Assembly: GCA_027310235.1 (NCBI GenBank)
Contig: DAIDBF010000049.1
Location: forward strand, 1-32,960
Direction: 5' to 3'
Length of the DNA stretch: 32,960 nucleotides
DNA from: a bacterium
GTDB lineage: Bacteria > Patescibacteriota > Minisyncoccia > UBA6257 > GWB1-50-10
In this document: positions 15,967 through 32,960 of the stretch, piece by piece
How the letters are laid out: the number at the start of each line of letters is the position of its first letter
Position numbering within the stretch: position 1 is the first letter of the stretch
Translations under genes and position numbers: made by a program
The notes under the pieces: model-generated
Seen by the model: only the letters and a program-made list of their open reading frames with translations
The model's database searches: none
What the model was told of the DNA's origin: nothing

Positions 15967-15999
15967 TTTCTCTCCAAACGCGTTACAATAAGGGAGAAA

Positions 16000-18080: not shown

Positions 18081-19526
18081 ATGCCTCGCGAATCAAAACT
18101 GCAAATTATCAAATATGCTCCTCCGCCGCCGGAGCTGCCGATCTACGGGCAAGTTGACCCGAAGGACGTGTCGTTTATAGGGAGAACCAATTACGTCGCC
18201 GCGCTTGAGCGGAAGAATTTCATCTTTGGCATCAAACGCGTCGACAGAAGAAGGCACGCGTACATCATCGGGAAAAGCGGCGTCGGAAAATCGAAGCTCT
18301 TGGAACTTTTTACGCGCCAGGATATCGCCTATGGCCACGGACTTTGCCTTATCGATCCGCACGGCGAAACGATCGACGACATCCTTCCGTTTATCCCAAA
18401 GGAACGCATTGATGATGTGTGCATCATCGATCCTTCCGACATTAATTACCCCGTATCCTTCAACCCGCTTGCAAACATCGATCCCTCTTTCAAACATCAG
18501 CTTACCCAAGGTCTTATTGAAGTCATGGAAAAGCAGTTCGGTGCGAACTGGACGCCGCGGCTCGAGCACGTATTCCGCTTTACCTGTCTCGCGCTTCTCG
18601 ATTATCCGCATGCCACCATGCGCGGCATGATCTCGATGTTGACCGATAGAAACTACCGCCAAAAAGTAGTGGAATATATCGAGGACGACATGGTAAAACG
18701 CTTCTGGGCGATCGAGTTTGCCGACTGGTCGGAAAAGTTCGACACGGAGGCCATCATCCCGCTTGTAAACAAGCTCGGACAGTTCCTTTCGGATCCGATG
18801 CTTCGGAACATCTTCGGGCAGAAAGAAAACAAGGTAAAACTCGAAGAGTTGATGCAGGAGAAGAAGATCATTCTCATCAATCTTTCGAAGGGGAAGATCG
18901 GAGAAGAAAATTCAAGTTTCTTCGGTTCGATGTTCATCACGAAAATTAAGCAAGCCGGCATGGCGCGCGCCGCGCTTCCAACCTCCGAACGGCACGACTA
19001 CTACGTGTATGTGGACGAGTTCCAGAATCTCGTAACCGATACGTTTGAAAACCTTTTGTCCGAGGCGCGCAAGTACGGATTGTGTCTTACAGTCGCGCAT
19101 CAGTATGTGGGGCAACTCTTGCCGAAGGTAGAAGCCGCCGTTCTGGGAAATACCGGAACGATTATCATTTTCCGCGTAGGCGGCGAAGATGCCGTGAAAC
19201 TGAAACCGGAGATGGCGCCCATCTTCGATATTAAGGATATGATCAACCTCGGTATGGGTCAGATTTATATCAAGATGACGATTGATGGCGAGACGTACGA
19301 TCCATTTTCCGCAGAGACGCTGAAAGTGCTCCCGCCGACGCATCCCTCATATAAGGAAGAAATCGTCGCGCGATCGCGCGAGAAGTATTCAATCTCCGCG
19401 GATGCGGCAAAGCGGCTCATCGCGGAAGAGGAAGAAGGAATTTTCCGAAGTGCCCAGGAAAAGGCGGCGATCACTGGCAAACCGCAGGCGGCGGCCGGAA
19501 ACGATACTCCAGAACCACTCATATAG
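18081..19526 (+). CDS. Soluble VirD4/TraD/TraG (type IV coupling protein)-like P-loop ATPase, paralogue 1
   Basis: It has Walker A IIGKSGVGKS, Walker B YYVYVDEFQN, then LLSEARKYGLCLTVAHQYVGQL, matching the T4CP-type pattern DE..L....L.E.RK.G....HQ...QL. There is no N-terminal TM segment. Confidence 0.8.
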   Translation: MPRESKLQIIKYAPPPPELPIYGQVDPKDVSFIGRTNYVAALERKNFIFGIKRVDRRRHAYIIGKSGVGKSKLLELFTRQDIAYGHGLCLIDPHGETIDDILPFIPKERIDDVCIIDPSDINYPVSFNPLANIDPSFKHQLTQGLIEVMEKQFGANWTPRLEHVFRFTCLALLDYPHATMRGMISMLTDRNYRQKVVEYIEDDMVKRFWAIEFADWSEKFDTEAIIPLVNKLGQFLSDPMLRNIFGQKENKVKLEELMQEKKIILINLSKGKIGEENSSFFGSMFITKIKQAGMARAALPTSERHDYYVYVDEFQNLVTDTFENLLSEARKYGLCLTVAHQYVGQLLPKVEAAVLGNTGTIIIFRVGGEDAVKLKPEMAPIFDIKDMINLGMGQIYIKMTIDGETYDPFSAETLKVLPPTHPSYKEEIVARSREKYSISADAAKRLIAEEEEGIFRSAQEKAAITGKPQAAAGNDTPEPLI

Positions 19527-19662: not shown

Positions 19663-19694
19663 TGGGAAAGGTCGCTAGTTTAAAAGTAAATTAT

Positions 19695-20000
19695 ATGGTT
19701 CTCATTTATACCACGTGTAAAAATGAAGAAGAGGGAAAGAAACTCGCAAAACTGATTATCGAGCATCATATGGCCTCGTGCGTGAACGTGTGGCCCATTC
19801 AGTCGGTCTATCGCTGGGAAGGGGAGATCAAGGAGGACCAGGAGGCCGGGGTTCTTGTAAAGACGCTCGAGTCGAAACTGCAGCCGATTGAAGATCTGAT
19901 CATGCAGAATCACGCGTATGTCACTCCTTTTATAGGGGCTGTCGATGTGCGTCGTATCAACCATGCCTACAAGGAGTGGATGTCGGAGGTGGTCCGGTAG
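19695..20000 (+). CDS. cutA: Divalent-cation tolerance protein CutA
   Basis: 101 aa with the typical CutA1 pattern: VLIYTTC.....A..LA..I.....ASCVN..P..S.Y.W.G.I......L..KT. Confidence 0.85.
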   Translation: MVLIYTTCKNEEEGKKLAKLIIEHHMASCVNVWPIQSVYRWEGEIKEDQEAGVLVKTLESKLQPIEDLIMQNHAYVTPFIGAVDVRRINHAYKEWMSEVVR

Positions 20001-20028
20001 TTGCATTTTTTGGAAGTTGTGATATAAT
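20001..20028 (+). promoter_or_regulatory. Candidate promoter with extended -10
   Basis: TTGCAT (20001-20006), a 16-nt spacer, then TGaTATAAT (20020-20028). The ATG at 20041 is 12 nt downstream. Confidence 0.5.
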
Positions 20029-20040
20029 ATAACCATTGAA

Positions 20041-20223
20041 ATGCCACTCTGGCTCATTATTGTTGTAGCGTTAGTTATTGCATACACGGTCTACTCGATT
20101 GTGAAGGGTCTCACACTCACCTTCAGATGTAGGAGACTTCTGAGGCGTCACCGCATGCTCTTAGGAGAGAAAGTGGAGGAACTCGAAGAAGATAGTGACA
20201 GCGGTGACTCGGGAGGATTATAG
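20041..20223 (+). CDS. Small single-TM protein with basic then acidic tail
   Basis: It reads MPLWLIIVVALVIAYTVYSIV followed by RCRRLLRRHR and EELEEDSDSGDSGG. A promoter lies directly upstream. Confidence 0.55.
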   Translation: MPLWLIIVVALVIAYTVYSIVKGLTLTFRCRRLLRRHRMLLGEKVEELEEDSDSGDSGGL

Positions 20224-20285: not shown

Positions 20286-20307
20286 AGGAGGTTAATCCTC
20301 CTTTTTT
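20286..20307 (+). terminator. Hairpin plus T-tract, a likely intrinsic terminator
   Basis: aggagg-ttaat-cctcct is followed by tttttg. A near-identical hairpin (aaggagg-ttaaa-cctcctt) occurs at 9544-9562. Confidence 0.5.
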
Positions 20308-20333
20308 GTTTGTGGCTGTCGACAGGTTATAAT
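20306..20333 (+). promoter_or_regulatory. Candidate promoter giving a leaderless array transcript
   Basis: TTGTTT (20306-20311), a 16-nt spacer, then TATAAT (20328-20333). ATG 20340 is 6 nt after the -10 hexamer and has no SD. Confidence 0.45.
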
Positions 20334-20339
20334 AATCAG

Positions 20340-22061
20340 ATGCAATCGACTGAAAATATCTGCGTTACTTGCAATCTTCATTTTGAGGTTCTGCCCGACG
20401 ACGCGGTCTTTTACGAAAAAATCGGAGTACCTATCCCGCGATCGTGTCCTTTATGTCGTGCGCGGCACCGACTGACGTTTCGAAACGAACGATCGTTCTA
20501 CAAGAGAAAATGCGATCGATGCGGGAAAGAAAATGTCTCGATGTATAGTTCGAACAAACCGTTCAGAGTGTGGTGTCATGAGTGCTGGTTCTCGGATGCG
20601 TGGGATGCAAAAGATTTCGGGATCTCGTACGACTCCTCGAAACCGTTTTTGGATCAGTTCGGCGCACTTTTGAATACGGTGCCGAAAGTAGGTCTTATGT
20701 ACGAACGGAGCGTGAACTCGGAGTATGTGAATATCTCAGCCGACAACAAGAGCTGCTACATGATTATCGAGTCCTCGAATAATGAGGACTGCACGCATTG
20801 TTACTGGATTCAGGAGTGTCGCAACCTGACGGACGTTTCGTTCGCTTCGAAGACCGAACTCTCATACGAAAGCGACGACTGCTACAAGTCCTACAAACTT
20901 TTCTACAGTAAGGGATGTCACGATTCTCACGACGGATATTTTCTTCTCGATTGCCGCGGGTGCTCCGATTGCATCGGGTGCGTGAACTTGAGGAATACGC
21001 AATACCACGTGTTCAACAAGCCACTCTCGCGGGAGGAGTACGAGGCGTTCAAACAAAAAGTGCGTCTCGATACATGGAGTGGCAAAGAAAAAATACGAAA
21101 GCAATTCGAAGAGTTCATCGCGACGCAACCGAGAAGGTTCGGCGAGGTTTACAATGCGCCGAACTCGTCGGGAAACTACATCAAGGATTCGAAAAACTGC
21201 CGTTCCTGCTTTCATTGCTATGACTCCGAGGACTGCGCGTACGGCGTGCACGTGTGGCGGAACGCGAAGGATTGCATGGATTCCGATACGGCGGGAAGGA
21301 ATGCCGCGCTCGTCTACAACTCGATCAATGCGGGTATCGATACCTCCCATTATATAAGCTGTGCGGTGTGTTGGTCGTGCAGTTTTATGGAGTATTCGTC
21401 ATACTGCTTCAACTCCAATCACTGTTTCGGGTGTGTGGGATTAAGAAAGAAGGATTACTGTATTTTGAACAAGCAGTACTCCAAGGAAGAGTACGAAGAG
21501 AAAAGAGAAAAAATTATTGCGGAAATGAGGCATTCCGGGGCGTACGGCGAGTTTTTCCCCGTCGGAATGAGCACCTTCGGGTATAACGAAAGTGCCGCGC
21601 AGGACCAGTTTCCGCTTACGAAGGAAAAGGCGCTCACGCTCGGATTTTCGTGGGAAGACACTCCGCGCGGAACATACGGGAAAGAAACCATTTCGTGGGA
21701 GGCGATCCCTGATTCGATCCGTGAAATCAAAATTGACGTGTCGAAAGAAATTTTCGCGTGTGTCACGTGTAAAAAGAACTTCAGGATTATCCCGAGCGAG
21801 TTCGAATTTTATAAGCACCTTGAGATTCCTTTACCGAGAGAATGTCCGGATTGTAGACATTTAAGAAGATTCCGTGCACGAGGACCGAACCGACTCTTTG
21901 AGCCGCGGCAGTGCGCGTGCGATTACAAGGTGTATAAGAACTCGACGGTACACCTTCATCATCGTGAAGGGAGATGTCCCAATACGTTTCAGTCGAATTA
22001 TCCCCCGGACGCGAAAGAAATTTTATACTGTGAATCATGTTACCAAACTGAGGTAGTGTGA
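20340..22061 (+). CDS. Cys-rich multi-zinc-ribbon repeat protein, array member g1 (B-like subtype)
   Basis: All family motifs are present: the N-terminal CVTC...FYEKIGVPIPRSCPLCR, then CDRCGK...CHECWFSDAW, two C..C.GC..LR..Y...N caps, YGEFFP..YNESAAQDQFP, the C-terminal CVTCKKNFRIIPSEFEFYKHLEIPLPRECPDCR, and the terminal YCESCYQTEVV. I preferred ATG 20340 over the track's TTG 20310. Confidence 0.9.
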   Translation: MQSTENICVTCNLHFEVLPDDAVFYEKIGVPIPRSCPLCRARHRLTFRNERSFYKRKCDRCGKENVSMYSSNKPFRVWCHECWFSDAWDAKDFGISYDSSKPFLDQFGALLNTVPKVGLMYERSVNSEYVNISADNKSCYMIIESSNNEDCTHCYWIQECRNLTDVSFASKTELSYESDDCYKSYKLFYSKGCHDSHDGYFLLDCRGCSDCIGCVNLRNTQYHVFNKPLSREEYEAFKQKVRLDTWSGKEKIRKQFEEFIATQPRRFGEVYNAPNSSGNYIKDSKNCRSCFHCYDSEDCAYGVHVWRNAKDCMDSDTAGRNAALVYNSINAGIDTSHYISCAVCWSCSFMEYSSYCFNSNHCFGCVGLRKKDYCILNKQYSKEEYEEKREKIIAEMRHSGAYGEFFPVGMSTFGYNESAAQDQFPLTKEKALTLGFSWEDTPRGTYGKETISWEAIPDSIREIKIDVSKEIFACVTCKKNFRIIPSEFEFYKHLEIPLPRECPDCRHLRRFRARGPNRLFEPRQCACDYKVYKNSTVHLHHREGRCPNTFQSNYPPDAKEILYCESCYQTEVV

Positions 22062-22094
22062 TGAGTATCAAGTAGTTAGTATTAAGTATCAAGT

Positions 22095-23858
22095 ATGCAA
22101 GAGACGAAACAGTGTCAGAATTGCAAGAATGAGTTTGTCATCGAACCGAACGATTTCTTATTTTACGAGCGCATACAAGTACCGCCGCCGACGTTTTGCC
22201 CGGAATGCAGGGAGCAGAGAAGAATCGCCTGGAGAAACGAGCGTGCGCTCTATAAGAGAAAATGCGACTTGTGCGGCGAGTCGGTCGTCTCGCGTGTCTC
22301 GCCAGACAAACCATATCCGATGTACTGCAAGAAATGCTGGTGGGGCGACACGTGGAGCCCCTTCTCTTACGGGAGGGAGTATGACTTCTCGCGTCCCTTT
22401 TTCGAGCAGTTCAAGGAGCTCCTGTATGCGACGCCGCATGTCTCGATCCTGAACCTGAATACCGTAAACAGCGAGTGGGTAAATCAGGAAACCGACGACA
22501 AGAACTGCTATCTGAACGTGGGCGGGCATTACAACGAGGATTCCGCCTACAACACCTACTCCCTTTACACCAAGGATTCTCTCGACAACTTCTGGCTTTT
22601 GAACGGCGAGCTCGCATACGAAAACATGAACTGCGAGAAGTGCTACCGCATTCTAGGATCGAGGGATTGCTCCGATTCGCAAAACATCGCCTTCTCCTTC
22701 GATTGTAGGAACTGCTCGGACTGTCTCGGATGCGCGGGACTCAGAAACAAACAATACTACATCTTCAATGAGTCGCATTCGAAGGAGTCGTACGAGAAGT
22801 TTTTGGAAGAACACCCACTGAGTTCATATAAGCATTTTTGCGAATTACGTGCCCGCGCGGCAGTATTTTGGAACACCATTCCTCATCGTTTCGCGTCCAT
22901 CCTAAGATCAAGTGAGGTGAGTGGAAACCACATCACCAATTCGAAGCGAGTATTCAACTCCTGGGACGTAGAAGACAGCGAGGATGCGAAGTACATCTAC
23001 ATCGGAGGATGGCTTCGCGACAGCTACGATGAGAGTGCGCATGGGGCGTCCGAGTTGAGTTATGAGTGCGCAAGCGGCGGGGGGGTATATGATTCGAAGT
23101 TCTGCGTTTTCTGCATGAGCGGCGATCCTTTGAAAAAGATACACTCGTCCGATATTGAGTATTGCTACTCCATAATCGACAGCAAAAACTGTTTCGGGTG
23201 CGCCAATTTGAGAAACGGGGAGTATTGTATTTTGAACAAGAAGTATACGAAAGAGGAGTACGAGGCGCTTCTTCCGAAGATACGACAGCATATGATGGAG
23301 ATGCCGTATCAAGGGAAGAATGGACGGGAGTACCGATACGGAGAATTTTTCCCGATTGAGTTTGCCCCTTATGGTTATAACGAGACCGCGGCGCAGGACT
23401 ACTATCCGCTCGCGAAGGAAGAAGCGATCGAAAAAGGATATTCGTGGTGCGATTACGAGTCGGACGCGAAGTACGAATTTTCGGACTATACGATTCCGGA
23501 CGATATCAAAGACGTGAAAGACGATATTCTTCAGAAAATTCTGAAGTGCGAAGTGTCGTGGAAACCCTATCGCCTCGTTCCTATGGAACTGGAGTTTTAT
23601 AGGAGAATGAACCTCCCGATTCCTCGCGTCTCGCCGCTCGAGCGTCATAATGCGAGAATGAGGAAACTTCTTCCGCGTAAGCTTTTTGAAAGAACATGTG
23701 AATGTAACGGATCATCTTCGGAACGCGGCGGATATAAGAATCTCACCTCCCACGTTCACGGTGTGGGCAGGTGTCCGAATGCGGTGAAAACGCCTTACGC
23801 CCCCGATCGGGGAGAAATCGTGTACTGTGAATTATGTTACCAAGCCGAGGTGGCATAG
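22095..23858 (+). CDS. Cys-rich multi-zinc-ribbon repeat protein, array member g2 (A subtype)
   Basis: 587 aa. The head is MQETKQCQNCKNEFVIEPNDFLFYERIQVPPPTFCPECREQRR. The A-type tail is RTCEC...HVHGVGRCPN...PDRGEIVYCELCYQAEVA. The C-terminal ribbon ligands are lost (KCEVSWKPYRL...RVSPLER). Confidence 0.9.
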   Translation: MQETKQCQNCKNEFVIEPNDFLFYERIQVPPPTFCPECREQRRIAWRNERALYKRKCDLCGESVVSRVSPDKPYPMYCKKCWWGDTWSPFSYGREYDFSRPFFEQFKELLYATPHVSILNLNTVNSEWVNQETDDKNCYLNVGGHYNEDSAYNTYSLYTKDSLDNFWLLNGELAYENMNCEKCYRILGSRDCSDSQNIAFSFDCRNCSDCLGCAGLRNKQYYIFNESHSKESYEKFLEEHPLSSYKHFCELRARAAVFWNTIPHRFASILRSSEVSGNHITNSKRVFNSWDVEDSEDAKYIYIGGWLRDSYDESAHGASELSYECASGGGVYDSKFCVFCMSGDPLKKIHSSDIEYCYSIIDSKNCFGCANLRNGEYCILNKKYTKEEYEALLPKIRQHMMEMPYQGKNGREYRYGEFFPIEFAPYGYNETAAQDYYPLAKEEAIEKGYSWCDYESDAKYEFSDYTIPDDIKDVKDDILQKILKCEVSWKPYRLVPMELEFYRRMNLPIPRVSPLERHNARMRKLLPRKLFERTCECNGSSSERGGYKNLTSHVHGVGRCPNAVKTPYAPDRGEIVYCELCYQAEVA

Positions 23859-23898
23859 TTATCCCCAATATTATCGAGGCCCGGCCTCGATAGATTGA
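23859..23898 (+). repeat. 40-nt repeat containing a GC hairpin (copy 1)
   Basis: ttatccccaatattatcgaggcccggcctcgatagattga is identical over 40/40 nt to 31087-31126. Its core tatcgaggcc-c-ggcctcgata is a 10-nt-arm palindrome. It starts right after the g2 stop. Confidence 0.8.
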
Positions 23899-23909
23899 GA
23901 ACACATCAT

Positions 23910-24029
23910 ATGAACCAAGAAGCCAAAATCTGCCAAAACTCCGACGCTCCGACGAACACGTCGGAGGTCGGAGCCCCGACCCGAAGGCGTCGGGGTTGTG
24001 AAGCGTGCTATCAAAGCGAAGTCATATGA
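23910..24029 (+). pseudogene. Scar of a deleted B-A gene pair (B-type head fused to A-type tail)
   Basis: The 39 codons read MNQEAKICQN...GCEACYQSEVI*. The 5' end matches the g5 head (atgaaccaagagaaaagaatctgccaaaactgc). The 3' end matches the g4 tail (tgctatcaatcagaagtcgtatga) together with its downstream palindrome. The middle consists of GC-rich hairpins. Confidence 0.65.
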
Positions 24030-24033
24030 CAGG

Positions 24034-24053
24034 TGCTATGCTATAGCATAGCA
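24034..24053. repeat. A-to-B junction palindrome (copy 1)
   Basis: tgctatgcta/tagcatagca is a perfect 20-nt palindrome lying 5 nt after the scar's TGA and 13 nt before the g3 ATG. Confidence 0.7.
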
Positions 24054-24066
24054 GTCAAAATATCCC

Positions 24067-25719
24067 ATGAACGAAGAGAAACGAATTTGTCAAAATTGCA
24101 AACAGCCGTTCACAATTGAAATGGATTGTAAGGTTCTGTATGAAAAAATGGGTATTCCGGTACCGAAAGAATGCCACATGTGCATCTGGAAAAATCTGAT
24201 GGCGTTTTGGATCTTCGGAAAATTCAGAAAAACAACCTCGGCACTCTCTGGGAAAACCATCATTACAACGTTTTCAGAAATTACACCATTTCCACTTTAC
24301 GAGTATGAAGAATGGACATCGGATGCGTGGAATCCGTTGGAATACGGCCAGGAATATGATTTTTCGAGGCCATTTTTCGAGCAGTTTGCGGAAGTACAGC
24401 GAAGAACACCTCATCCATATAGATCGGGAACGATGAGCACGAACTGTGAATGGAGTGACGACGCGTGGAGTTGTAAAAACTGTTATCTCTGCCGCTCAAT
24501 GCTTCATTGTGAAGACCTAAGCTATGGTTATCGTACGGTAAATTGTAAGAACTCAATTGATGTCACATTCTGCTTCGATACGGAATATTCTTATGATTGC
24601 ACGTACTGCTTCAAATCATACCGTCTCCGCCACTCATTTGATGCGCGTGATTGTTTGGAAAGCGCATTTCTGTACGACTGCAGGAATGTTCGAAACTGCT
24701 TTATGTGTTGGAATTTGAGGGGAAAACAGTATCACATATTAAACCAACCATACGCAAAGGAGGAGTACTTCAAGAAAATCGGAACGTATAGACTCGACTC
24801 GCGACGTGAACTGGAAAAACTGAGACGCGAATTCGCCAATATCGTCGCTCGCGAAGTGATCCATCGCGCCGATCGCAACTTGAAAGTAGTGAACTCAACC
24901 GGTAATTTTCTCGAGGAATGTAAAAATTGTCATGAGTCATATTTTGCCCAAAAGTCGGAGAATAGTTGTTACCTCTTCCGCGGATTTGAACAACGCGAGG
25001 TTATTTATGCCGCAGGTACCATTGCAGAAAAGGCCGCACTTTCGGTAATGGATGGTTATAACTACGATACGGTTGTGACTTCTCATTGTGGAAGATGTAG
25101 GTATAGCGCATATCTCGATTATTGTGAGGAGTGTGAATATTGTTTCGGGTGCGTAGGATTAAGAAGAAAAAAATATTGCATTTTAAACAAACAATATTCG
25201 GAATCCGAGTATAACGAACTTATCAAGAAAATAAAAGCTCAGATGGTTGCCGATGATGTATGGGGAACGTTTTTCCCATACGCTCTCGCATACGGTGGTT
25301 ATAATCTCTCAACCGCTCAGATGGTTTTTCCGGAAACCCAGGAGGCAATAGAATCGAGAAGAGGAATTTGGGAAGATCTTCCTGAACAAAACTATGAAGG
25401 AATCTCAGGTGATGCAACACCTGATGTAATTGGTGATGTGGGTGATGATTTTTCAAAGCAAGCGGTCATCTGTCCGGAGACAAAGTGGCGATTCAATATA
25501 GCGCCCCAGGAACTCACGTTTTATAGGGAGTTTGGGATACCTCTTCCCAGCTTGCACCCTGATGTACGAACAAAGAATCGTATGAAACCTCTTACTATTA
25601 CTACGCCGCATCAAGGTATCTGTATCTTTTGTTCCAAACCTATAGTGCATTACTATCCTCCGGAGTGGGAATATAAGAAGATCGCATGTATGGAGTGTTA
25701 TCAAAAAGAAGTGATATGA
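24067..25719 (+). CDS. Cys-rich multi-zinc-ribbon repeat protein, array member g3 (B subtype)
   Basis: 550 aa. The head is MNEEKRICQNCKQPFTIE and the short B-type tail is ICIFCSKPIVHYYPPEWEYKKIACMECYQKEVI. The second N-terminal ribbon and the C-terminal ribbon have both lost their Cys. Confidence 0.9.
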   Translation: MNEEKRICQNCKQPFTIEMDCKVLYEKMGIPVPKECHMCIWKNLMAFWIFGKFRKTTSALSGKTIITTFSEITPFPLYEYEEWTSDAWNPLEYGQEYDFSRPFFEQFAEVQRRTPHPYRSGTMSTNCEWSDDAWSCKNCYLCRSMLHCEDLSYGYRTVNCKNSIDVTFCFDTEYSYDCTYCFKSYRLRHSFDARDCLESAFLYDCRNVRNCFMCWNLRGKQYHILNQPYAKEEYFKKIGTYRLDSRRELEKLRREFANIVAREVIHRADRNLKVVNSTGNFLEECKNCHESYFAQKSENSCYLFRGFEQREVIYAAGTIAEKAALSVMDGYNYDTVVTSHCGRCRYSAYLDYCEECEYCFGCVGLRRKKYCILNKQYSESEYNELIKKIKAQMVADDVWGTFFPYALAYGGYNLSTAQMVFPETQEAIESRRGIWEDLPEQNYEGISGDATPDVIGDVGDDFSKQAVICPETKWRFNIAPQELTFYREFGIPLPSLHPDVRTKNRMKPLTITTPHQGICIFCSKPIVHYYPPEWEYKKIACMECYQKEVI

Positions 25720-27509
25720 CCCCGGAAACGAAAACGTGTCAGAACTGTAAGGTTCAGTTCACGATAGAACCCGAGGATTTTGCGTTTTACGAGAAGATGC
25801 AAGTTCCGCCGCCCACGTGGTGCCCGATGTGTCGGATGCAGCGACGACTTGCGATACGAAACGAGCGGTATCTGTTCAAGCGGACAAGCGATTTTTCGGA
25901 AAAGGAGATATTCTCTGGGTACCCGGCATCTGCGCCGATCAAGGTGTATGAGAATGAGGTGTGGTATTCCGATGTATGGGATCCAAGGAGCTTCGCGATG
26001 GATATTGATTTCTCGAGGCCTTTCTTGGATCAACTACTGGAACTCTTCCGTAAGGTCCCCATCTACACGTTGTCTACCGCATTCGGAACGAACAGCGATT
26101 ACGCGAATAACTTCACCGGTTTCAAGAATTGCTACCTTGTGTTTGACGGCAATTATGCCGAGGACTGCATGTACGGGAGGGGCATTAATTATGCGAAAAA
26201 CTCGGTGGATAATTCTTTCCTGGATCACGTGGAAAATGCGTACGGCAACTTCTGGATTAACCGTTCATCGCACCTCATGTATTGTAGCCAGTGCGCCGAT
26301 TCGGTCGATTGTTACTTCTGCAAAAATTGCGTCGGATGTAGCGATTGTTTCGGATGTGTGAACCTGAGAAACAAGAAATATTGCTTTTTCAACAAATCGT
26401 ACCGCAAAGAGGAATACAAAAAACTCCTCGAGCAGTATAATCTCGGATCGTTTAAGGTGATAACGGAACTGGAAGAGAAAACAGGGGAGTTTTACCTGCA
26501 TTTTCCAGTGAAATTCATGGAAGGGATGAAAAACACGAATTCGAGCGGCGAGTACATGTATAACTGCAGAAACGTGCACGATTCGTACATCATTGTGGAT
26601 GCCGAGAATGTCCGTTACTCGTCGTATATGGAGATAGGTCCGATAAAAGATTGCTATGACTATACGGTATGGGGAAACAATGCGGAGCTCCTCTACGAAT
26701 GCGCGGACTGCGGGCTCGGTGTTTCAAACATGAGGTTCTGTATGGCGTGTTGGTCGGAGGTGAGGAACGCGGAGTACTCGCTCTTTTGCCAATCCTCGTC
26801 GGATATTTTCGGGTGTGTCGGACTTCGGAACGGCAAATACTCCATCCTAAATAAAGAATACGGAGAAGAGGAATATAAAATGCTTCGTGAAAAAATTATC
26901 ACGAGCATGAAAGAACTACCCTATCACGCGAACGGAACCGACTACTCATACGGAGAATTCTTCCCTCCCGCGTTTTCCGCGGTTCCTTATAATCACACGC
27001 CGGCATACGAACAATTTCCGCTTACAAAAGAAGAAGCGCTTGCGAAGGGGTATATGTGGGAAGATTCCACCGAGAAGAAGCATGAGCAGACTCTTTTATG
27101 GAGTGATCTACCCGATGCGATACAGGATGTTAAGAACGAAATAACAAAGGAGACGGTACTGTGTGAATCCTGGGAAAAGGATCGGGAAAAAGTCTCGCTT
27201 CGGAACTGCACGAAAGCGTTCCGTTTCCATCCGAACGAAATAGAGTTTTATCGGCGCTACACAACTCCGCTTCCGAGAAAATGTTCCAACTGCAGGGAAT
27301 TCGATCGTCTTCAGAAGAGGAATCCAGCGCGTCTTTATCACCGTGTCTGCCAGTGCGCCGGTGCGAAATCCGAAAACGAAGCGTACGCAAACACCACTAC
27401 TCACCAGCACGGAACGGGGAGATGCGCGAACGAATTCGAAACAAGTTATTCGCCCGACCGAAAAGAGATCATCTACTGCGAGCTGTGCTATCAATCAGAA
27501 GTCGTATGA
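25716..27509 (+). CDS. Cys-rich multi-zinc-ribbon repeat protein, array member g4 (A subtype)
   Basis: The start MTPETKTCQNCKVQFTIEP overlaps the g3 stop (ATGA at 25716-25719). The A-type tail is RVCQCAGAKSENEAY.NTTTHQHGTGRCANEFETSYSPDRKEIIYCELCYQSEVV. The second N-terminal ribbon has lost its Cys (KRTSDFSEK...YENEVWYSDVW). Confidence 0.9.
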   Translation: MTPETKTCQNCKVQFTIEPEDFAFYEKMQVPPPTWCPMCRMQRRLAIRNERYLFKRTSDFSEKEIFSGYPASAPIKVYENEVWYSDVWDPRSFAMDIDFSRPFLDQLLELFRKVPIYTLSTAFGTNSDYANNFTGFKNCYLVFDGNYAEDCMYGRGINYAKNSVDNSFLDHVENAYGNFWINRSSHLMYCSQCADSVDCYFCKNCVGCSDCFGCVNLRNKKYCFFNKSYRKEEYKKLLEQYNLGSFKVITELEEKTGEFYLHFPVKFMEGMKNTNSSGEYMYNCRNVHDSYIIVDAENVRYSSYMEIGPIKDCYDYTVWGNNAELLYECADCGLGVSNMRFCMACWSEVRNAEYSLFCQSSSDIFGCVGLRNGKYSILNKEYGEEEYKMLREKIITSMKELPYHANGTDYSYGEFFPPAFSAVPYNHTPAYEQFPLTKEEALAKGYMWEDSTEKKHEQTLLWSDLPDAIQDVKNEITKETVLCESWEKDREKVSLRNCTKAFRFHPNEIEFYRRYTTPLPRKCSNCREFDRLQKRNPARLYHRVCQCAGAKSENEAYANTTTHQHGTGRCANEFETSYSPDRKEIIYCELCYQSEVV

Positions 27510-27511
27510 TA

Positions 27512-27535
27512 GGTACTATGACGCGTCATAGTACC
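27512..27535. repeat. A-to-B junction palindrome (copy 2)
   Basis: ggtactatgacg/cgtcatagtacc is a perfect 24-nt palindrome lying 2 nt after the g4 stop and 5 nt before the g5 ATG. Confidence 0.7.
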
Positions 27536-27540
27536 CTTAA

Positions 27541-29250
27541 ATGATCATGAACCAAGAGAAAAGAATCTGCCAAAACTGCAAACAATCGTTTACGACAGAA
27601 CCCGAGGACTTCGCATTCTACGAGAAGATGCAAGTACCTCCGCCGACGTTTTGTTCGAAATGTCGGCTTCAGAGAAGATTAGCGTTCTTCAATATTTTTA
27701 ATCTTTACAAGCGCCCTTGTGATCTTTGTGAAAAGGATTTTATTTCGACATACAGATCGGAGGCACCATATAAAGTATATTGTCCGAAGTGTTGGTGGTC
27801 GGACAATTGGGATGTATTTAAATATGGGAGGGAATACGATTTTTCGCGCCCGTTTTTTGAACAATTCAAAGAACTGTGGCACGAGACCCCGGTTTTGGGA
27901 GTTTCAATCGATATTCCCGCGATGCAAACATCACCATACACAAATCACACGGGGCACCTCAAGAACTGCTATCTTCTCTTTCATGCGGATTACGTTGAGG
28001 ATTCGGCATATGGATTTTACCAGGTGCATAATAAATCGGTGTTCGATGCGGTTTGCGCGATGAACTGTGAGATGTGTTATGACAGCCAGAACGCGTTCAA
28101 AAATAATCGGTGCGTGGGGACACGAGGTAATGTCACAAATTCACTCGATTGCTACTTCCTCCGCGATTGCGACAACTGTCAAAATTGTTTCGCGTCCGTG
28201 AATCTCCGGAACGCGAAATTTCAGATATTTAATAAACAGTATTCAAGAGAAGGGTATTTCGAGGAACTCAAGAAATGGGATTTCGGTTCGTATAAGACCT
28301 ATTGCGAGGTGGAAAAAATGGCGCACGAACACTGGAGGGAATTCCCGCCGCGCCCGAAGTACGATGATTTCTCAGTGGATTGCACAGGAAGCTATATTTT
28401 TCAGTCGAAGAACTGCAAGGAATGTTTTGATTCAACAAACGTGCAGGACTCGAAATTCATGCTTCTCGTCGAAGACAGACCGACAAAGGATTCCTACGAT
28501 ATCTCAAGCTGGGGAAATAATATGACGCGCTGCTATGAATGCTGTAATGTCGGTGAAGACGTATCGGACGTGCGATTTTCACAGGAATCGGGACTCACGC
28601 TTATGGATGCTGAGTACTGTAAGCTCTCGACGGGATCGCATCACTTCGGATGTGTATCGGTGAAGAAAGGAGATTATGTCGTTCTGAACAAACGGTATTC
28701 GAAGGAGGCATATGAGGTGCTCACCGCGAAGATCCGCAAACACATGGATATAGTGCCATATATCGACAAGAAGAAGAGGGTATATAGGTATGGCGAGTTC
28801 TTTCCGATCGAGATTGCGCAGTTCGCCTACAATGAAACGATTGCAAATGATTTCTTCCCGATGAGTAGGGCAGAAGCGGAGTCGGATGGGTATTATTGGA
28901 ATGAACCGGAAGAGCGGAATCACATGATTACAAAATCGTACGCCGATCTTCCGGATCACATCAATGATGTGGAGGACAATGTTTTGAATGAAGTCGTTGG
29001 ATGTGAAGTATGCGGTAAGGGATACAGGATCACGCCTATGGAGCTCTCGTTTTTGCGCCAGATGCGCCTGCCACTCCCGCGCACGTGCCCCTTCTGTAGG
29101 ATCAATGAGAAGTTCAAACAATGGGTAAAGAATCTTCGTATAATTCCACGTGTGTGCGATCGATGTGGCGCGCATTTCACGACGAATTACACGAAAGAAG
29201 AAGCACCACACATTTTGTGCAAGGAATGCTATCTTAAGGAGGTAGTATGA
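27541..29250 (+). CDS. Cys-rich multi-zinc-ribbon repeat protein, array member g5 (B subtype)
   Basis: 569 aa with the head M(IM)NQEKRICQNCKQSFTTEP. All ribbons are intact. The short B-type tail is RVCDRCGAHFTTNYTKEEAPHILCKECYLKEVV. The start may be 27547. Confidence 0.9.
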   Translation: MIMNQEKRICQNCKQSFTTEPEDFAFYEKMQVPPPTFCSKCRLQRRLAFFNIFNLYKRPCDLCEKDFISTYRSEAPYKVYCPKCWWSDNWDVFKYGREYDFSRPFFEQFKELWHETPVLGVSIDIPAMQTSPYTNHTGHLKNCYLLFHADYVEDSAYGFYQVHNKSVFDAVCAMNCEMCYDSQNAFKNNRCVGTRGNVTNSLDCYFLRDCDNCQNCFASVNLRNAKFQIFNKQYSREGYFEELKKWDFGSYKTYCEVEKMAHEHWREFPPRPKYDDFSVDCTGSYIFQSKNCKECFDSTNVQDSKFMLLVEDRPTKDSYDISSWGNNMTRCYECCNVGEDVSDVRFSQESGLTLMDAEYCKLSTGSHHFGCVSVKKGDYVVLNKRYSKEAYEVLTAKIRKHMDIVPYIDKKKRVYRYGEFFPIEIAQFAYNETIANDFFPMSRAEAESDGYYWNEPEERNHMITKSYADLPDHINDVEDNVLNEVVGCEVCGKGYRITPMELSFLRQMRLPLPRTCPFCRINEKFKQWVKNLRIIPRVCDRCGAHFTTNYTKEEAPHILCKECYLKEVV

Positions 29251-29291
29251 CGAGCGAGTAGTAAGTAGTTTATAGTGAGTAGGATGAGTTT

Positions 29292-31055
29292 ATGACTACC
29301 GAGACGAGAACGTGTCAGAATTGTAAATCCGAGTTCATTATCGAACCGGACGATTTTGCGTTTTACGAGAAGATTGACGTACCACCGCCGACGTTTTGTC
29401 CCGCGTGTCGAAAACAGCGACGACTCGCGTGGCGCAACGACCTTTCGCTTTATACGAGAAAATGTGATTCCTGCGGAAAAAATGTGGTGTCACTTTATGC
29501 CCCGAATGGACCCATAGAGACCGTATATTGTCAAAAGTGCTGGTGGTCAGATAAATGGGATCCGATGGCGTACGGCCGTGAGTACGATTTCTCGAAGCCA
29601 TTTTTCGAGCAATTTGCCGCGCTCCAAAGACACGTACCGACACTCGCAATGATTAATGACGATGGAGTGGGAAGTATAAATTGCGAATACACGCAGGATT
29701 TTGCGCGTAGCAAGAATTGTTACATGGTGTTTATCGCGTGGAAGCTTGAGGACTGTCTCTATAGTTTCTATATTCTTGACGGCAAGGAAATTGTGGATAG
29801 TTTAAACTCCATGGGCGAGTGTGAGATGATCTACGATACCGTATACACGGAGAAATGTTACCGGTGTCGCAACGTGTATTATTCGGTTACGCTTTCTGAT
29901 TGTAATTTTTGTTGGGATTGTCGTGATTGCTCCGATTGTTTTCTCTGCGTAGGGCTTCGCCATAAACGATACTGCTTCAAGAATAAGCAGTATTCCAAAG
30001 AGGAATATGAACATATTCTTGCCGAATATCGGCTCAATGCGTACTCGGGGATTCAGCGTGCGTCGAGTGAACTTCAACCGCTTTTATTTCAATACCCCCG
30101 CAGGTTTTCAAATTTGCGTAATTGTGTGCGTTGTACCGGTGACGCGCTTATTAATGGAAAGAACTCAAAGGATTGCTTTAACGTTCAGCGACCTGAAGAT
30201 TGTCGATGGATAGAAAATTCCGATACACCTACAGCGAGCTATGATTTGAGTGTCGGGGGAGAACTTGAAAACTGCTATGAGGGAATCACCCCCGACCACT
30301 CGTATCGCGGCCGCTTCGAGATATTTTCTTGGAAAAACACCGAAGTTTCTTATACGGATGCGTGTCATTCTTGTAAAGATGTGTTTGGATGCGTGGGTCT
30401 TAAGAAGGCGCAATACTGTATCCTCAACAAACAGTACTCAAAAGAGGAATATGAAATACTTGTGCCAAAGATTAAAAAACATATGAATGAAATGCCTTAT
30501 ATCGACCGTTCCGAAGTAATATATCGTTTTGGAGAATTTTTCCCCGCCGAACTTTCCTACTTTGCGTACAACGAAACCGGCGCGCAAGAATCGTTTCCTA
30601 TGTCGCACGAAGAAATTTCCGGATGTGGTTTACGGTGGCAGGACAATTTTCAAACTACGGTTGGAAAAGAAACCCTTACGGCGGATGAACTACCAGACAG
30701 TATTAACGATGTTGAAAATTCTATCTTGAATGAGGTGTTGCGGTGTGAAACATGTGCGAGGAACTATCGTATCGTGCCGCGCGAACTGGAGTTCTACCGA
30801 AAGATGCGAATACCTCTCCCGCGCCATTGTTTCCATTGTCGTACGAAAGCACGTTTCAATTTACGAAATCCGTTTTCACTTTGGCACCGCACTTGTCAAT
30901 GTGTTGGTCCAAAATCCGAGAATGGCGCCTACCAAAACACCGCATCTCATGACCACGGGACAGAAAAATGTCCCAATACATTTGAAACGAGTTATGCACC
31001 CGACCGCCCGGAGATTGTATATTGCGAGGGGTGCTATCAAAAGGAGGTAGTATAG
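29292..31055 (+). CDS. Cys-rich multi-zinc-ribbon repeat protein, array member g6 (A subtype)
   Basis: 587 aa with the head MTTETRTCQNCKSEFIIEPDDFAFYEKIDVPPPTFCPACRKQRR. All ribbons are intact. The A-type tail is RTCQCVGPKSENGAYQNTASHDHGTEKCPNTFETSYAPDRPEIVYCEGCYQKEVV. Confidence 0.9.
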   Translation: MTTETRTCQNCKSEFIIEPDDFAFYEKIDVPPPTFCPACRKQRRLAWRNDLSLYTRKCDSCGKNVVSLYAPNGPIETVYCQKCWWSDKWDPMAYGREYDFSKPFFEQFAALQRHVPTLAMINDDGVGSINCEYTQDFARSKNCYMVFIAWKLEDCLYSFYILDGKEIVDSLNSMGECEMIYDTVYTEKCYRCRNVYYSVTLSDCNFCWDCRDCSDCFLCVGLRHKRYCFKNKQYSKEEYEHILAEYRLNAYSGIQRASSELQPLLFQYPRRFSNLRNCVRCTGDALINGKNSKDCFNVQRPEDCRWIENSDTPTASYDLSVGGELENCYEGITPDHSYRGRFEIFSWKNTEVSYTDACHSCKDVFGCVGLKKAQYCILNKQYSKEEYEILVPKIKKHMNEMPYIDRSEVIYRFGEFFPAELSYFAYNETGAQESFPMSHEEISGCGLRWQDNFQTTVGKETLTADELPDSINDVENSILNEVLRCETCARNYRIVPRELEFYRKMRIPLPRHCFHCRTKARFNLRNPFSLWHRTCQCVGPKSENGAYQNTASHDHGTEKCPNTFETSYAPDRPEIVYCEGCYQKEVV

Positions 31056-31126
31056 CCAATATTAAGGAGGCCCGGCCTCGATAAAGTTATCCCCAATATT
31101 ATCGAGGCCCGGCCTCGATAGATTGA
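31056..31126 (+). repeat. Degenerate plus perfect copy of the 40-nt hairpin repeat
   Basis: 31056-31085 (ccaatattaaggaggcccggcctcgataaa) is a variant copy. 31087-31126 is identical to 23859-23898. The repeat begins directly after the g6 stop. Confidence 0.8.
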
Positions 31127-31146: not shown

Positions 31147-31155
31147 TGGTATAAT
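31147..31155 (+). promoter_or_regulatory. Extended -10 element (TGgTATAAT) giving a leaderless ATPase transcript
   Basis: TGGTATAAT lies at 31147-31155. ATG 31163 is 7 nt downstream and has no SD. Confidence 0.45.
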
Positions 31156-31162
31156 ACGAGCA

Positions 31163-32960
31163 ATGCCAAACGAGGAAGCGGATAAGGACGTCGTCTATTT
31201 TGCGAAGACGAATTTTCGGAACTCGAACCGACTTTTCGGTATCAGGCGGAAAGATCGTCGTCAACACACGTATATCATCGGAAAGACCGGTACCGGTAAG
31301 TCCGCGCTTTTGAACAACTTAATTGTGCAGGATATCGCAAACGGCGAAGGACTTTGCGTTGTGGATCCGCATGGAGAACTTATCGAGGACATCCTTCACA
31401 AGATTCCGGAGGAGCGGATGAAGGACGTCGTGTACTTCAATCCTGCGGACACCGATTTTCATCTCGGATTCAATGTCTTGGAGCTCCCCGATCCGAAGTA
31501 TAAACACCTTGTTGCGTCGGGTCTCATGGGTATTTTCACGAAGATCTGGTCGAACGTATGGTCGGCGAGAATGGAATATATTTTGAATAACGCGATTCTC
31601 GCCCTTCTCGATACTCCGGGAAGTACACTTCTCGGCATCACGCGGCTTCTCGTTGACAAAGAGTATCGCGGAAAGATCGTTTCGAACCTCAAAGACCCCG
31701 TCGTCAAAGCGTTCTGGGTGAACGAGTACGAGGAGTGGCGGGATCAGTTCAGAAACGAGGCAATCGCTCCTATTCAAAACAAGGTAGGCCAGTTCCTTTC
31801 GACTTCGGTGGTTCGAAACATTGTGGGACAAGCGAAAAGCACCTTCGATATTTTCGAAATCATGAATTCGGGAAAAATCTTTCTCGTGAACGTGTCAAAA
31901 GGAAGGATCGGTGAAGATAACTCGGCGCTTTTGGGCGCGATGCTTATCACGAAGATTCAACTCTCCGCGATGGAACGCGTGCGCGTCCCGGAAGAAGAGC
32001 GTGTCGATTTTTTCCTCTATGTCGACGAGTTTCAGAACTTCGCGACCGATTCGTTCGCGAGCATTCTCTCCGAAGCGAGAAAGTACCGACTTGATCTCGT
32101 ACTTGCGCACCAGTACGTGGGACAACTCGTGACGGACGTCTCGACCAAGGTGCGCGACGCGGTATTTGGGAACGTCGGAACGATGATTGTGTTCAGGGTG
32201 GGCGCGGCTGACGCGGAGTTTTTGGAGAAAGAGTTCGAACCGGAGTTCCTTCCGGAAGATTTCGTGAATCTTCCGAACTACAACATTTATTTGAAACTGA
32301 TGGTAAACGGCGTCACGAGTCGTCCTTTTTCCGCCGCCACGCTTCCGCCTTTTAAGTTGAGCACCTCCGAGGATATAGAACAAAAAATCATCGAATATTC
32401 GAGAAAGCACTACGCGCGCCCGCGATGGGTGGTCGAGGAAGAAATCAACAAATGGACCGGCGTCATGGGGCCGAGTGAAGGACAGTTCGAGGTGACGTGT
32501 TCGTCGTGCGGCAAGCAGACGACCGTGCCATTCGAACCAGAGGAAGGTCGTCCGGTGTACTGTAAGGACTGCCTTGCAAAGATAAAGTCGGGCGAGATGA
32601 AGCCGGTACGAATGGCGCCGCGGGAATCGAAGGATGGCGGCCGGCCGCGGGAACAGCAATATGCCGCGCTTGCGGGCCTCGGTATCGAGTTTGAGGAACA
32701 TCCGGAACGATCGGCGGAACGAAAACAAGAAAGAAACGGCGAGGCGCAAGAAAAACCCCACCGCCCCTCGAATCATTTCCAGGAAAGAAAAGAGCAGAAG
32801 GTTGAAGAACGACCGAAGACGACGTTCGAGGAGGAGTCTGTGGTTGCTCCGCAGCCCGAAACGCCGGCGCTTTCGCTCCACGCGCTTGAGACGGGTTCCG
32901 GTGCCGAAGCAAAGAAGAAAGAAGAATCGGAAGAAGTATTGGATGTGGAAGAGCTCCGAA
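31163..32960 (+). CDS. VirD4/TraD/TraG-like P-loop ATPase, paralogue 2, with C-terminal zinc ribbon and charged tail (3' end outside window)
   Basis: This ORF is absent from the ORF track because no stop falls in the window; my manual translation is open from ATG 31163 to the window end. It has IIGKTGTGKS, FFLYVDEFQN and ILSEARKYRLDLVLAHQYVGQL, and is clearly paralogous to 18081-19526. It adds VTCSSCGKQTTVPFEPEEGRPVYCKDCL (32498-32572) and an E/K/R-rich tail. Confidence 0.85.
   Translation, partial: MPNEEADKDVVYFAKTNFRNSNRLFGIRRKDRRQHTYIIGKTGTGKSALLNNLIVQDIANGEGLCVVDPHGELIEDILHKIPEERMKDVVYFNPADTDFHLGFNVLELPDPKYKHLVASGLMGIFTKIWSNVWSARMEYILNNAILALLDTPGSTLLGITRLLVDKEYRGKIVSNLKDPVVKAFWVNEYEEWRDQFRNEAIAPIQNKVGQFLSTSVVRNIVGQAKSTFDIFEIMNSGKIFLVNVSKGRIGEDNSALLGAMLITKIQLSAMERVRVPEEERVDFFLYVDEFQNFATDSFASILSEARKYRLDLVLAHQYVGQLVTDVSTKVRDAVFGNVGTMIVFRVGAADAEFLEKEFEPEFLPEDFVNLPNYNIYLKLMVNGVTSRPFSAATLPPFKLSTSEDIEQKIIEYSRKHYARPRWVVEEEINKWTGVMGPSEGQFEVTCSSCGKQTTVPFEPEEGRPVYCKDCLAKIKSGEMKPVRMAPRESKDGGRPREQQYAALAGLGIEFEEHPERSAERKQERNGEAQEKPHRPSNHFQERKEQKVEERPKTTFEEESVVAPQPETPALSLHALETGSGAEAKKKEESEEVLDVEELR

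Follow-up and report, generated by a model that had tools for sequence, protein, structure and literature searches.

A Cys-rich Zn-finger protein family with a duplicated repeat core, arrayed between two VirD4/TrwB-like ATPase genes in Patescibacteria DNA

Positions 20340-31055 of contig DAIDBF010000049.1 (assembly GCA_027310235.1) carry six intact open reading frames (ORFs, g1-g6) of 550-597 amino acids (aa), all on the forward strand and all belonging to one Cys-rich protein family. The window analysed here is the whole 32,960-nt stretch of this Patescibacteria contig, read on the forward strand; in it the array is flanked by genes for two soluble P-loop ATPases of the VirD4/TraD/TrwB type, denoted ATPase-S and ATPase-Z. 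The terminal fingers of the Cys-rich proteins are of known, functionally uncharacterised types, and the partner ATPases belong, as divergent members, to a known superfamily. In the libraries and papers searched, no counterpart is described for the whole Cys-rich family, for its duplicated core of 12-residue repeats or for its link to orphan ATPases resembling type IV coupling proteins (T4CPs). The descriptive part of this account, i.e. the family, its architecture, the paralogy and the ATPase neighbourhood, is secure. Functionally, the family proteins are tentatively predicted to be Zn-stabilised adaptor or ligand-binding subunits of the ATPase-S/ATPase-Z system.

The array and its modular proteins

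A first-pass annotation of the window, made from the letters and a list of ORFs, had described six intact, co-directional genes of a single family. ORF analysis and full-length alignments bear this out: g1-g6 can be aligned end to end, with pairwise identities of 32-44%. A separate gene call on a Logan contig with identical proteins returned lengths of 550, 597, 567 and 587 aa for g3, g4, g5 and g6, respectively. The start of g1 was placed at ATG 20340 (573 aa) on the basis of N-terminal homology, where the automatic ORF list gave TTG 20310. The start of g4 at 25716 yields the ATGA overlap with g3 that had been noted at the first pass. All members follow the same order of modules, i.e. finger A and finger B (zinc ribbons ZnR1 and ZnR2), two tandem blocks of 12-residue repeats, and then A and B again (ZnR3 and ZnR4). 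The “long tail” of some members is a 22-residue insert (C.C...H.HG...) within ZnR4. Loci compared below are identified by L numbers, L006 being the closest genome. The array and its flanking ATPases are as follows.

18081-19526 (+), ATPase-S: soluble VirD4/TrwB-like ATPase, 481 aa, without Zn finger; 47% identical to ATPase-Z
20340-22061 (+), g1: family member, 573 aa; four of four Zn fingers intact; long tail; L006 orthologue 83% identical
22095-23858 (+), g2: family member, 587 aa; ZnR3 degenerate (CSSE); long tail; L006 orthologue 86-87% identical
24067-25719 (+), g3: most divergent member, 550 aa; ZnR2 and ZnR3 lost; short tail
25716-27509 (+), g4: family member, 597 aa; ZnR2 lost; long tail; ATGA overlap with g3
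27547-29250 (+), g5: family member, 567 aa; Zn fingers all intact; short tail; L006 orthologue 83-84% identical
29292-31055 (+), g6: family member, 587 aa; Zn fingers all intact; long tail; protein used for modelling
31163-32960 (+), ATPase-Z: soluble VirD4/TrwB-like ATPase; CxxC-x17-CxxC finger at the C-terminus (residues 446-470); tail rich in K and E; runs off the window

Profile slices from a 209-member alignment, compared by hhalign, substantiate the modular plan with internal duplications that had been read from the six sequences. ZnR1 (residues 1-52) matches ZnR3 (478-528) with a probability of 99.3% (E 2.9e-20), ZnR2 (53-95) matches ZnR4 (529-587) with 97.2% (E 3.8e-11), and block 1 (116-250) matches block 2 (268-400) with 99.95% (E 1.5e-38). 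Each block spans about 135 aa and is dominated by a 12-residue period (autocorrelation 0.35 and 0.28), with a repeat unit of the form (K/E)-(N/D)-(C/S)-x-(Y/F). The blocks end in a Cys-rich cap, followed by ..LR.K.Y.I.NK.YSKEEY and a helix; the cap motif CxxCxxCxxC at 210-219 is conserved at 81-96%. Conservation is lowest in the repeats (0.39-0.40), reaches 0.60 in the caps and 0.55-0.64 in the Zn modules, and the conserved residues are mostly Cys and aromatic. A basic stretch (CP.CR.QRRLAWRN) is conserved after finger A, in both ZnR1 and ZnR3.

The proteins contain a median of 35 Cys. Across the 209 members the Cys ligands are conserved at approximately 95% in ZnR1, 58% in ZnR2, 88% in ZnR3 and 99% in ZnR4; the degenerate sites of the window are ZnR2 in g3 and g4, and ZnR3 in g2 and g3. 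Most Cys positions of the blocks swap with Ser, Val or Leu, and therefore look like a structural ladder rather than metal ligands. A hydropathy scan of g1-g6 revealed no transmembrane (TM) segment, in agreement with the first-pass annotation, and together with the Cys patterns this supports its view of cytoplasmic Zn proteins: all six look cytoplasmic and Zn-binding. Small CxxC-x17-CxxC proteins bind Zn according to inductively coupled plasma mass spectrometry (PMC12704099), and from these data and the Cys patterns we infer Zn binding for the family.

In library searches with all six proteins the core gave no significant match in Pfam, NCBIfam, PADLOC, PHROGs, PDB sequences or Foldseek, which agrees with the earlier statement that the proteins fall into no characterised family. 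Similarly, no enzyme family matched in any library searched, and no PADLOC family was matched by the Cys-rich proteins. Finger A (ZnR1, ZnR3) weakly resembles zf_Tbcl (PF13451), with sub-threshold matches in 25 of 55 members at E ≤ 0.01 (best E 1.6e-4); for g6 the score is 19.2 bits (E 1.2e-3) at a gathering threshold of 24 bits, and two database homologues carry a precomputed PF13451 match. PF13451 is marked by two CxxC pairs that enclose an F..FY...P.P segment; the Cys pairs of ZnR1 are 94-96% conserved. Finger B weakly matches zf_Tbcl_2 (PF23477) in 4 of 55 members (g2, E 0.042) and keeps the CxxC-x17/18-CxxC spacing of PF23477 and TIGR04272, with x17 in g1 and g5 and x18 in g6; the core that marks these profiles is ..F.P...RPVYC..C. 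Both zf_Tbcl types are modules of 35-50 residues with uncharacterised function; they cover about one third of a family protein, and the window proteins score below the curated thresholds. The duplicated repeat core of ~300 aa and the linkers YG.DYDFSRPFF.QF and YGEFFP...YNET.AQ are unlike any described family. Full-text literature searches retrieved no paper on the family or on PF13451/PF23477.

Several other identities were considered and rejected. The sole match in the PDB profile search was a weak LIM match over the Cys-rich cap (E 0.0066), judged to be compositional; as Pfam gave no match at E ≤ 1, assignment to LIM or to the DnaJ Cys-rich domain (PF00684) was dismissed. Within PHROGs only phrog_15341 (function unknown there, E ~1e-3) and a Lar-like Zn-ribbon match (E 0.005) were found. 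The possibility that the long tail (C.C...H.HG...C.N) belongs to an HNH nuclease was set aside because the segment is absent from short-tail members and no HNH profile matches. An Fe-S reading of CxxCxxCxxC was set aside, given the lack of a family match and the exchange of block Cys with Ser, Val or Leu, and may still hold for the cap motif. Finally, matches of 2.1-2.6 kb that had raised the suspicion of an intein or insertion proved to be merged adjacent paralogues.

The full-length AlphaFold2 (AF2) model of g6, based on a 55-sequence alignment, is compact, with a mean predicted local distance difference test score (pLDDT) of 83 and a predicted template modelling score (pTM) of 0.86. Its termini are confident; the repeat blocks reach pLDDT 56-72 and show few regular strands. 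Foldseek found no analogue of this model in the PDB (best E 3.8), and in BFVD only small fragments of Zn-ribbon/HNH-type proteins (best E 1.4e-3). When the core was modelled separately (pTM 0.50), block 1 formed a continuous all-beta ladder at pLDDT 75-87. The top Foldseek matches of the core-only model in the PDB were all right-handed beta-helices, SufB/SufD (E 0.18) among them, and none was significant (E ≥ 0.038, TM-score ~0.1, root-mean-square deviation ~18 Å). The 12-residue period, the core-only ladder and the class of its non-significant top matches make the beta-solenoid proposed at the first pass plausible. A beta-solenoid is the best reading of the blocks, albeit not established. The family resembles right-handed beta-helix and solenoid proteins (AlgE epimerase, tailspikes, SufB/SufD, pentapeptide-repeat proteins) in its short periodic units and its modelled ladder, but a unit of 12 residues is unusually short, and the Cys/Ser-Asn/Asp ladder with CxxC-rich caps is without a described beta-helix counterpart.

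Range, evolution and pair structure

A word-indexed search, which scores 8,000 candidates, returned at least 7,985 clusters at 90% identity; among the matches listed, the proteins are full-length (~570-600 aa), unnamed or “hypothetical”, and the named sources are all Patescibacteria. An exhaustive hidden Markov model (HMM) search of 1.84 billion 50%-representatives gave 5,239 clusters at E ≤ 1e-3 and 2,225 at E ≤ 1e-30. In GTDB species representatives at least 556 loci were confirmed, and the lineage-naming titles among the matches listed are, again, all Patescibacteria. The lineages named among the matches listed comprise Nomura-, Sungii-, Lipton-, Giovannoni-, Jorgensen-, Staskawicz- and Niyogibacteria, Paceibacterota and Minisyncoccia, one Peregrinibacteria and one Peribacteria record, and many metagenome-assembled genomes with the label “Saccharibacteria”, which could not be verified. 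No homologues were found in IMG/VR, among INPHARED phages or among PLSDB plasmids, and a mobile or viral origin was discarded on these grounds. For copy number, 82 non-redundant loci, each no longer than 22 kb, were analysed; they contain 95 clusters: 36 singletons, 29 pairs and 15 triplets, plus arrays of 4, 6, 7 and 11 genes. The eleven genes of the largest array (L049, JANBVK010000001.1) lie in one 21.7-kb stretch, ~3% of a 621-kb contig.

Each family gene of the window has its nearest relative in another genome and not in its own array, with identities of 87% for g2, 84% for g5, 76% for g6, 66% for g1, 59% for g3 and 55% for g4. In L006 the order g1-g2-...-g5-...-g6-ATPase is kept and the middle genes are different. 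Comparison with the L006 orthologues gave nonsynonymous distances (dN) of 0.07-0.10 at synonymous distances (dS) of at least 1.7 or saturated, i.e. dN/dS ~0.05 or less; the dN of the neighbouring ATPase-Z (0.053) is comparable. The repeat blocks evolve no faster than the termini. These values and the closer orthologues in other genomes contradict the earlier suggestion that diversity is maintained for recognition or conflict, and diversifying selection was rejected in view of the low dN/dS. Because of the low dN/dS, the closer orthologues elsewhere and the gene relics described below, g1-g6 are read as ancient, subfunctionalised paralogues in a birth-and-death array under strong purifying selection, and not as a diversifying set.

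The 208-bp spacer between g2 and g3 is not plain sequence but carries the remains of a seventh family gene, whose interior is deleted; the array therefore formerly held at least seven genes. Comparable head-tail or head-only fragments occur in or near the arrays of L026, L029, L041, L025 and L078. An example from L026 is METRNCQNCKKDFVIAPERMEIVYCEACYNVEII; in this locus the mini-ORF (4820-4957) retains both CxxC pairs. Such head-tail mini-ORFs could be recurrent deletion products or genuine mini Zn-ribbon proteins. The relic and the palindromes associated with the array are listed below.

23872-23892 (strand not applicable): perfect 21-mer palindrome TATCGAGGCCCGGCCTCGATA after g2; zero matches expected by chance
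23910-24029 (+): seventh-gene relic of 40 codons, head MNQEAKICQN joined to tail CEACYQSEVI*, interior deleted
27512-27535 (strand not applicable): perfect 24-bp palindrome GGTACTATGACGCGTCATAGTACC after g4, different from the palindrome of g2 and g6
31063-31120 (strand not applicable): two palindrome copies after g6, one perfect at 31100-31120 (identical to TATCGAGGCCCGGCCTCGATA) and one degenerate at 31063-31083

The identical palindromes of g2 and g6 are embedded in a repeat of ~40 bp (23859-23897 and 31086-31125), and a further perfect palindrome lies at 24034-24053, ahead of g3. A conserved palindrome had been proposed for the A-to-B junctions, i.e. after g2 and g4. Perfect palindromes are indeed present at both, but one follows g6 as well, and the copy after g4 differs from the others. 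None of the array palindromes is accompanied by a T-run; they may be hairpins for RNA stability or processing, or protein-binding sites that delimit gene pairs.

The first-pass annotation had further sorted the genes into alternating subtypes A (g2, g4, g6) and B (g3, g5 and, loosely, g1, with short tails), and regarded the array as a duplicated B-then-A module whose products would act jointly, with diversity kept by selection for recognition or conflict; heterodimers are one form that such joint action might take. Within the window the junctions inside g1g2, g3g4 and g5g6 are short (33 nt, a 4-nt overlap and 41 nt, respectively), and each of these pairs is followed by a perfect palindrome. 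The head N.EKRICQNCKQ occurs in the window only in g3, g5 and the relic, with similarity extending to the DNA level, and g2, g4 and g6 have a head and the long tail in common. Tight pairs exist elsewhere too, e.g. in L004 with a 4-nt overlap, and five of the seven B-type heads precede an A-type head.

The wider family does not follow this scheme. The tails of g1-g6 run long, long, short, long, short, long, and g1, contrary to its earlier assignment, combines a long tail with a head that is neither A nor B. In a neighbour-joining tree of the 209 members, computed without support values, A and B do not separate as clades: g1 groups with g6, and g3 falls into an early-branching clade of eight. 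Of the 209 members, 97 carry the head ETK.CQNC, which is the commonest type, and only 7 the B head; across the family, the type of head shows no correlation with that of the tail. Adjacent tails do not alternate (short-short 26, long-long 17, long-short 17 and short-long 12), A next to A is the most frequent head adjacency, and related genomes hold between 1 and 11 copies. Moreover, the low dN/dS, with blocks that evolve no faster than the termini, argues against the diversifying selection that had been proposed for the module. On the adjacency counts and the tree, alternation was rejected for the family. The B-A module is largely refuted as a family rule and appears improbable as an explanation of the array; there is some pair structure in this window, which is not a rule of the family.

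The flanking ATPases and other neighbours

Clustering of all neighbouring ORFs placed the soluble VirD4/TraD/TrwB-type P-loop ATPase first among the neighbours of the family, and in the window two such ATPases flank the array. Across loci, the ATPase-S form measures ~485-510 aa and the ATPase-Z form 600-870 aa, including a low-complexity tail. The gene for ATPase-Z was missed by the automatic ORF list and in earlier coordinates because it is open at the window end. Both proteins match TrwB_AAD_bind above its cut-off of 20.5 bits (ATPase-Z 54.6 bits, E 1.1e-14; ATPase-S 29.5 bits) as well as TraG-D_C, and both show the T4CP domains, i.e. a P-loop nucleotide-binding domain combined with a TrwB-type all-alpha domain. 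A TM anchor is found in neither, the membrane domain being a separate gene. Both score far below all conjugative equivalog cut-offs, and the window contains no type IV secretion system (T4SS) gene for VirB4, channel or relaxase. In PADLOC the ATPases match weakly, to mad8 (3.5e-14) and to HerA models. ATPase-Z is 60-92% identical between genomes.

The C-terminal finger of ATPase-Z (CSxCGKxTxVPFxPxxGRPVYCKDC) is recognised by TIGR04272 (E 4.5e-17) and PF23477 (E 4.9e-16). By hhalign it is homologous to finger B of the Cys-rich family, with a probability of 96.7% for ZnR2 (E 4.4e-10) and 90.7% for ZnR4, and the ZnR2 and ZnR4 HMMs match the ATPase-Z fingers of many loci. A search for further domain sharing with neighbour proteins yielded only this finger and small relic ORFs.

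An ATPase gene accompanies the family in 27 of the ~82 loci; its median distance to a family gene is 106 bp, and the two are nearly always co-directional. Linkage was counted for the 47 arrays whose flanks are sequenced over at least 3 kb in both directions. Here, an ATPase lies within 3 kb in 13 of 47 cases, namely beside 12 of the 26 arrays with more than one gene vs. 1 of 21 singletons. Conversely, of 27 metagenomic ATPase-Z loci whose flanks were long enough, 9 have a family gene within 3 kb; S and Z often lie side by side or are parted only by family genes. In 2,918 Patescibacteria genomes 5,713 VirD4-like T4CP homologues have been counted, of which 148 are near virB4; exaptation “cannot be ruled out” (PMC12102498). 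With about two such ATPases per ~1-Mb genome according to these counts, chance adjacency is expected in a few percent of cases. The observed adjacency exceeds this level; the association of arrays and ATPases is therefore genuine, if incomplete. The first-pass annotation had recommended a survey for linkage to the flanking ATPase, and such linkage is found.

The remaining genes upstream of the array were annotated as follows.

14892-15935 (+): protein with only sigma-70 region 4 and HARE-HTH (RNA polymerase delta-like); overlaps the next gene by 35 nt
15901-17406 (+): 2-TM membrane protein, 501 aa; matches the N-terminal part of phrog_5156 (9.3e-8) and, by blastp, the N-termini of the fused ATPases of L021 and L080
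17413-17955 (+): 1-TM small protein, 180 aa; recurs between the membrane protein and ATPase-S
19695-20000 (+): CutA1-family protein between ATPase-S and the family genes; recurs in L008, L031, L032 and L046

The N-terminal halves of the fused ATPases (790-909 aa) are homologous to the 2-TM protein, and the C-terminal part of phrog_5156 is an ATPase. Because of this homology the 2-TM protein at 15901-17406 is read as a split membrane anchor, probably that of ATPase-S. The gene upstream of it recurs in this position in 10 loci; it gives a weak match to MzaA in PADLOC/NCBIfam, via region 4 only. A CutA1 gene between ATPase-S and the family genes is found in five genomes, this one included. The trio of ATPase-S, family genes and ATPase-Z occurs in two settings, secD-secF-sigma(HARE-HTH)-membrane protein-S-...-Z and dnaK-Z-family-S-dnaJ; arrays are located between dnaK and dnaJ in 7 loci. 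In L006, L043 and L046, ATPase-Z is followed by TrmD and then by a split ComEC (Competence and Lactamase_B), a neighbourhood that is a possible hint of a link to DNA uptake.

Smaller features were noted as well. TATAAT stands 6 nt upstream of the g1 start codon ATG 20340 (region 20328-20342), and TGGTATAAT 7 nt upstream of the ATPase-Z start codon ATG 31163 (region 31147-31165). The position of these motifs suggests leaderless transcripts for both genes. A hairpin with a T-run is present at 20286-20309, just 5' of g1. Between CutA1 and g1, a 60-aa ORF (20041-20223, +) encodes one hydrophobic helix and an acidic tail, with weak similarity elsewhere (best L087, E 0.008). Antisense ORFs inside ATPase-Z (31319-31831 and 31895-32881, -) and opposite CutA1 (19680-20087, -) are without a family match and almost certainly spurious. 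Further upstream, a 492-aa ORF (5068-6546, -) without a Pfam match lies where both GC skew and AT skew are reversed.

Possible roles of the family

Our tentative reading is that the family proteins have no enzymatic activity and would serve the hexameric motor ATPases as Zn-stabilised subunits for binding or as adaptors. The conserved Zn-finger ends may dock to one partner shared by the paralogues, be it the ATPase system or a polymer such as nucleic acid, and the less conserved repeat blocks would provide each paralogue with its own ligand specificity. A binding role is suggested by the conservation of Cys and aromatic residues without an enzyme match, by conserved ends enclosing variable repeats and by the many conserved paralogues; a partnership with the ATPases is suggested by the finger common to ATPase-Z and by the siting of the genes between both ATPases. 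T4CPs work by bringing dedicated partners or substrates to a hexameric motor; the same logic is proposed here, and the flanking ATPases have the same nucleotide-binding and all-alpha domains. Unlike T4CPs, the window ATPases are soluble, with the membrane part in a separate gene and two paralogues, S and Z, and they are not beside VirB4, relaxase or channel genes; none of the known T4CP partners resembles the Cys-rich family.

A number of observations weigh against this proposal. About two thirds of the arrays and of the ATPase-Z loci with sequenced flanks have no partner within 3 kb, solo family genes stand in unrelated housekeeping contexts, and part of the synteny may have been inherited in common by genomes that are close relatives. 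The Zn finger found in both the family and ATPase-Z is of a small and widespread kind. Confidence in the modelled core fold is only moderate (pLDDT 56-72 in the full-length model), and the two AF2 runs differ in detail. A catalytic role would also be compatible with the sequence, considering e.g. the conserved CxxCxxCxxC motif.

A broader and rather doubtful extension would unite the family, both ATPases and the split membrane domain in a Patescibacteria-specific, membrane-associated motor system unrelated to conjugation. The paralogues would then be interchangeable specificity subunits, and the system may serve to capture, import or process host polymers (DNA or RNA); this role is suggested by the proximity of ATPase-Z to ComEC in three genomes and by DNA translocases as the nearest models. 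Alternatively, the proteins may be stand-alone nucleic-acid-binding factors, i.e. RNA or DNA chaperones, regulators or processing factors that act through four Zn fingers and a basic helix, with ATPase proximity a matter of operon or synteny history. We consider this possible, if somewhat unlikely. The four treble-clef/Zn-ribbon modules and the basic stretch conserved after ZnR1 and ZnR3 would fit such factors, as would the solo copies adjoining AlaRS, MetRS and LeuRS in L001 and L004, the weak BFVD matches to Zn-ribbon/HNH-type proteins and the majority of loci without an ATPase within 3 kb. However, no known nucleic-acid-binding domain scored above threshold in Pfam or NCBIfam, the enrichment of ATPases beside arrays in two genomic contexts is hard to attribute to chance, and neighbourhoods in dense genomes are weak evidence either way.

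That the proteins are cargo rather than subunits, recruited by the membrane-tethered VirD4-like ATPase for export or transfer to the host in the manner of type IV effectors, appears unlikely. The ATPases are of true T4CP type (TrwB_AAD_bind, TraG-D_C) with a membrane partner, the proteins lack a signal peptide and have an invariant C-terminus (...YCE.CYQ.EV(V/I)), and substrate genes arrayed beside a motor gene are a known theme. By analogy only, the locus recalls type VII secretion, where the FtsK-like EccC is combined with arrays of paired substrates, in that a motor of the FtsK/HerA/VirD4 superfamily stands beside tandem, partly paired paralogues; but 580-aa Zn proteins without WXG100-like, PE or PPE features are unlike type VII substrates, and no other component of that system is present. 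Tightly Zn-cross-linked proteins are poor translocation substrates, and strong purifying selection at 55-87% orthologue identity is unlike effectors. VirB4 and channel genes are absent from the window, and of the Patescibacteria T4CPs only 148 of 5,713 lie near virB4 (PMC12102498). A role in metal or redox handling, i.e. storage, buffering or chaperoning of Zn or Fe-S in connection with CutA1 and DnaK/DnaJ, is quite improbable. The abundance of Cys, the conserved cap motif, the CutA1 genes of five genomes, the seven dnaK-dnaJ loci and the appearance of SufB/SufD among generic beta-helix matches are in its favour, but block Cys exchange freely with Ser, Val and Leu as in a structural ladder, ZnR2 is lost in ~42% of the members, no Fe-S or metallochaperone family matched in Pfam or NCBIfam, the molecular role of CutA1 is itself unclear, and the SufBD similarity is not significant. 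There is very little to recommend an anti-phage or conflict system in which a HerA/VirD4-like ATPase would serve arrays of variable sensors. Tandem paralogue arrays are common in conflict loci, and the ATPases have their weak mad8 and HerA matches; the family itself, however, has no PADLOC match, is under purifying selection with orthologues conserved between genomes, sits in housekeeping operon contexts, and was not found on phages, plasmids or viral contigs (IMG/VR, INPHARED, PLSDB). ATPase-Z, too, is conserved between genomes like a core gene.

Patescibacteria, or candidate phyla radiation, are ultra-small, host-dependent bacteria whose genomes measure no more than ~1 Mb; even so, a single locus can retain as many as 11 copies (~19 kb) of this gene. 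With thousands of clusters but no core domain model, structural analogue or literature, the family represents a substantial gap in what is understood of a major lineage of bacteria. The link between arrays and ATPases offers a testable handle on the Cys-rich family and, likewise, on the 5,713 VirD4-like homologues that a 2025 survey found almost never in association with a T4SS (PMC12102498). The motor system outlined above, if true, would account for thousands of “orphan” T4CP homologues in these genomes. As cultivated relatives exist in the class Minisyncoccia, the source of several homologous loci, biochemistry on these proteins is conceivable.

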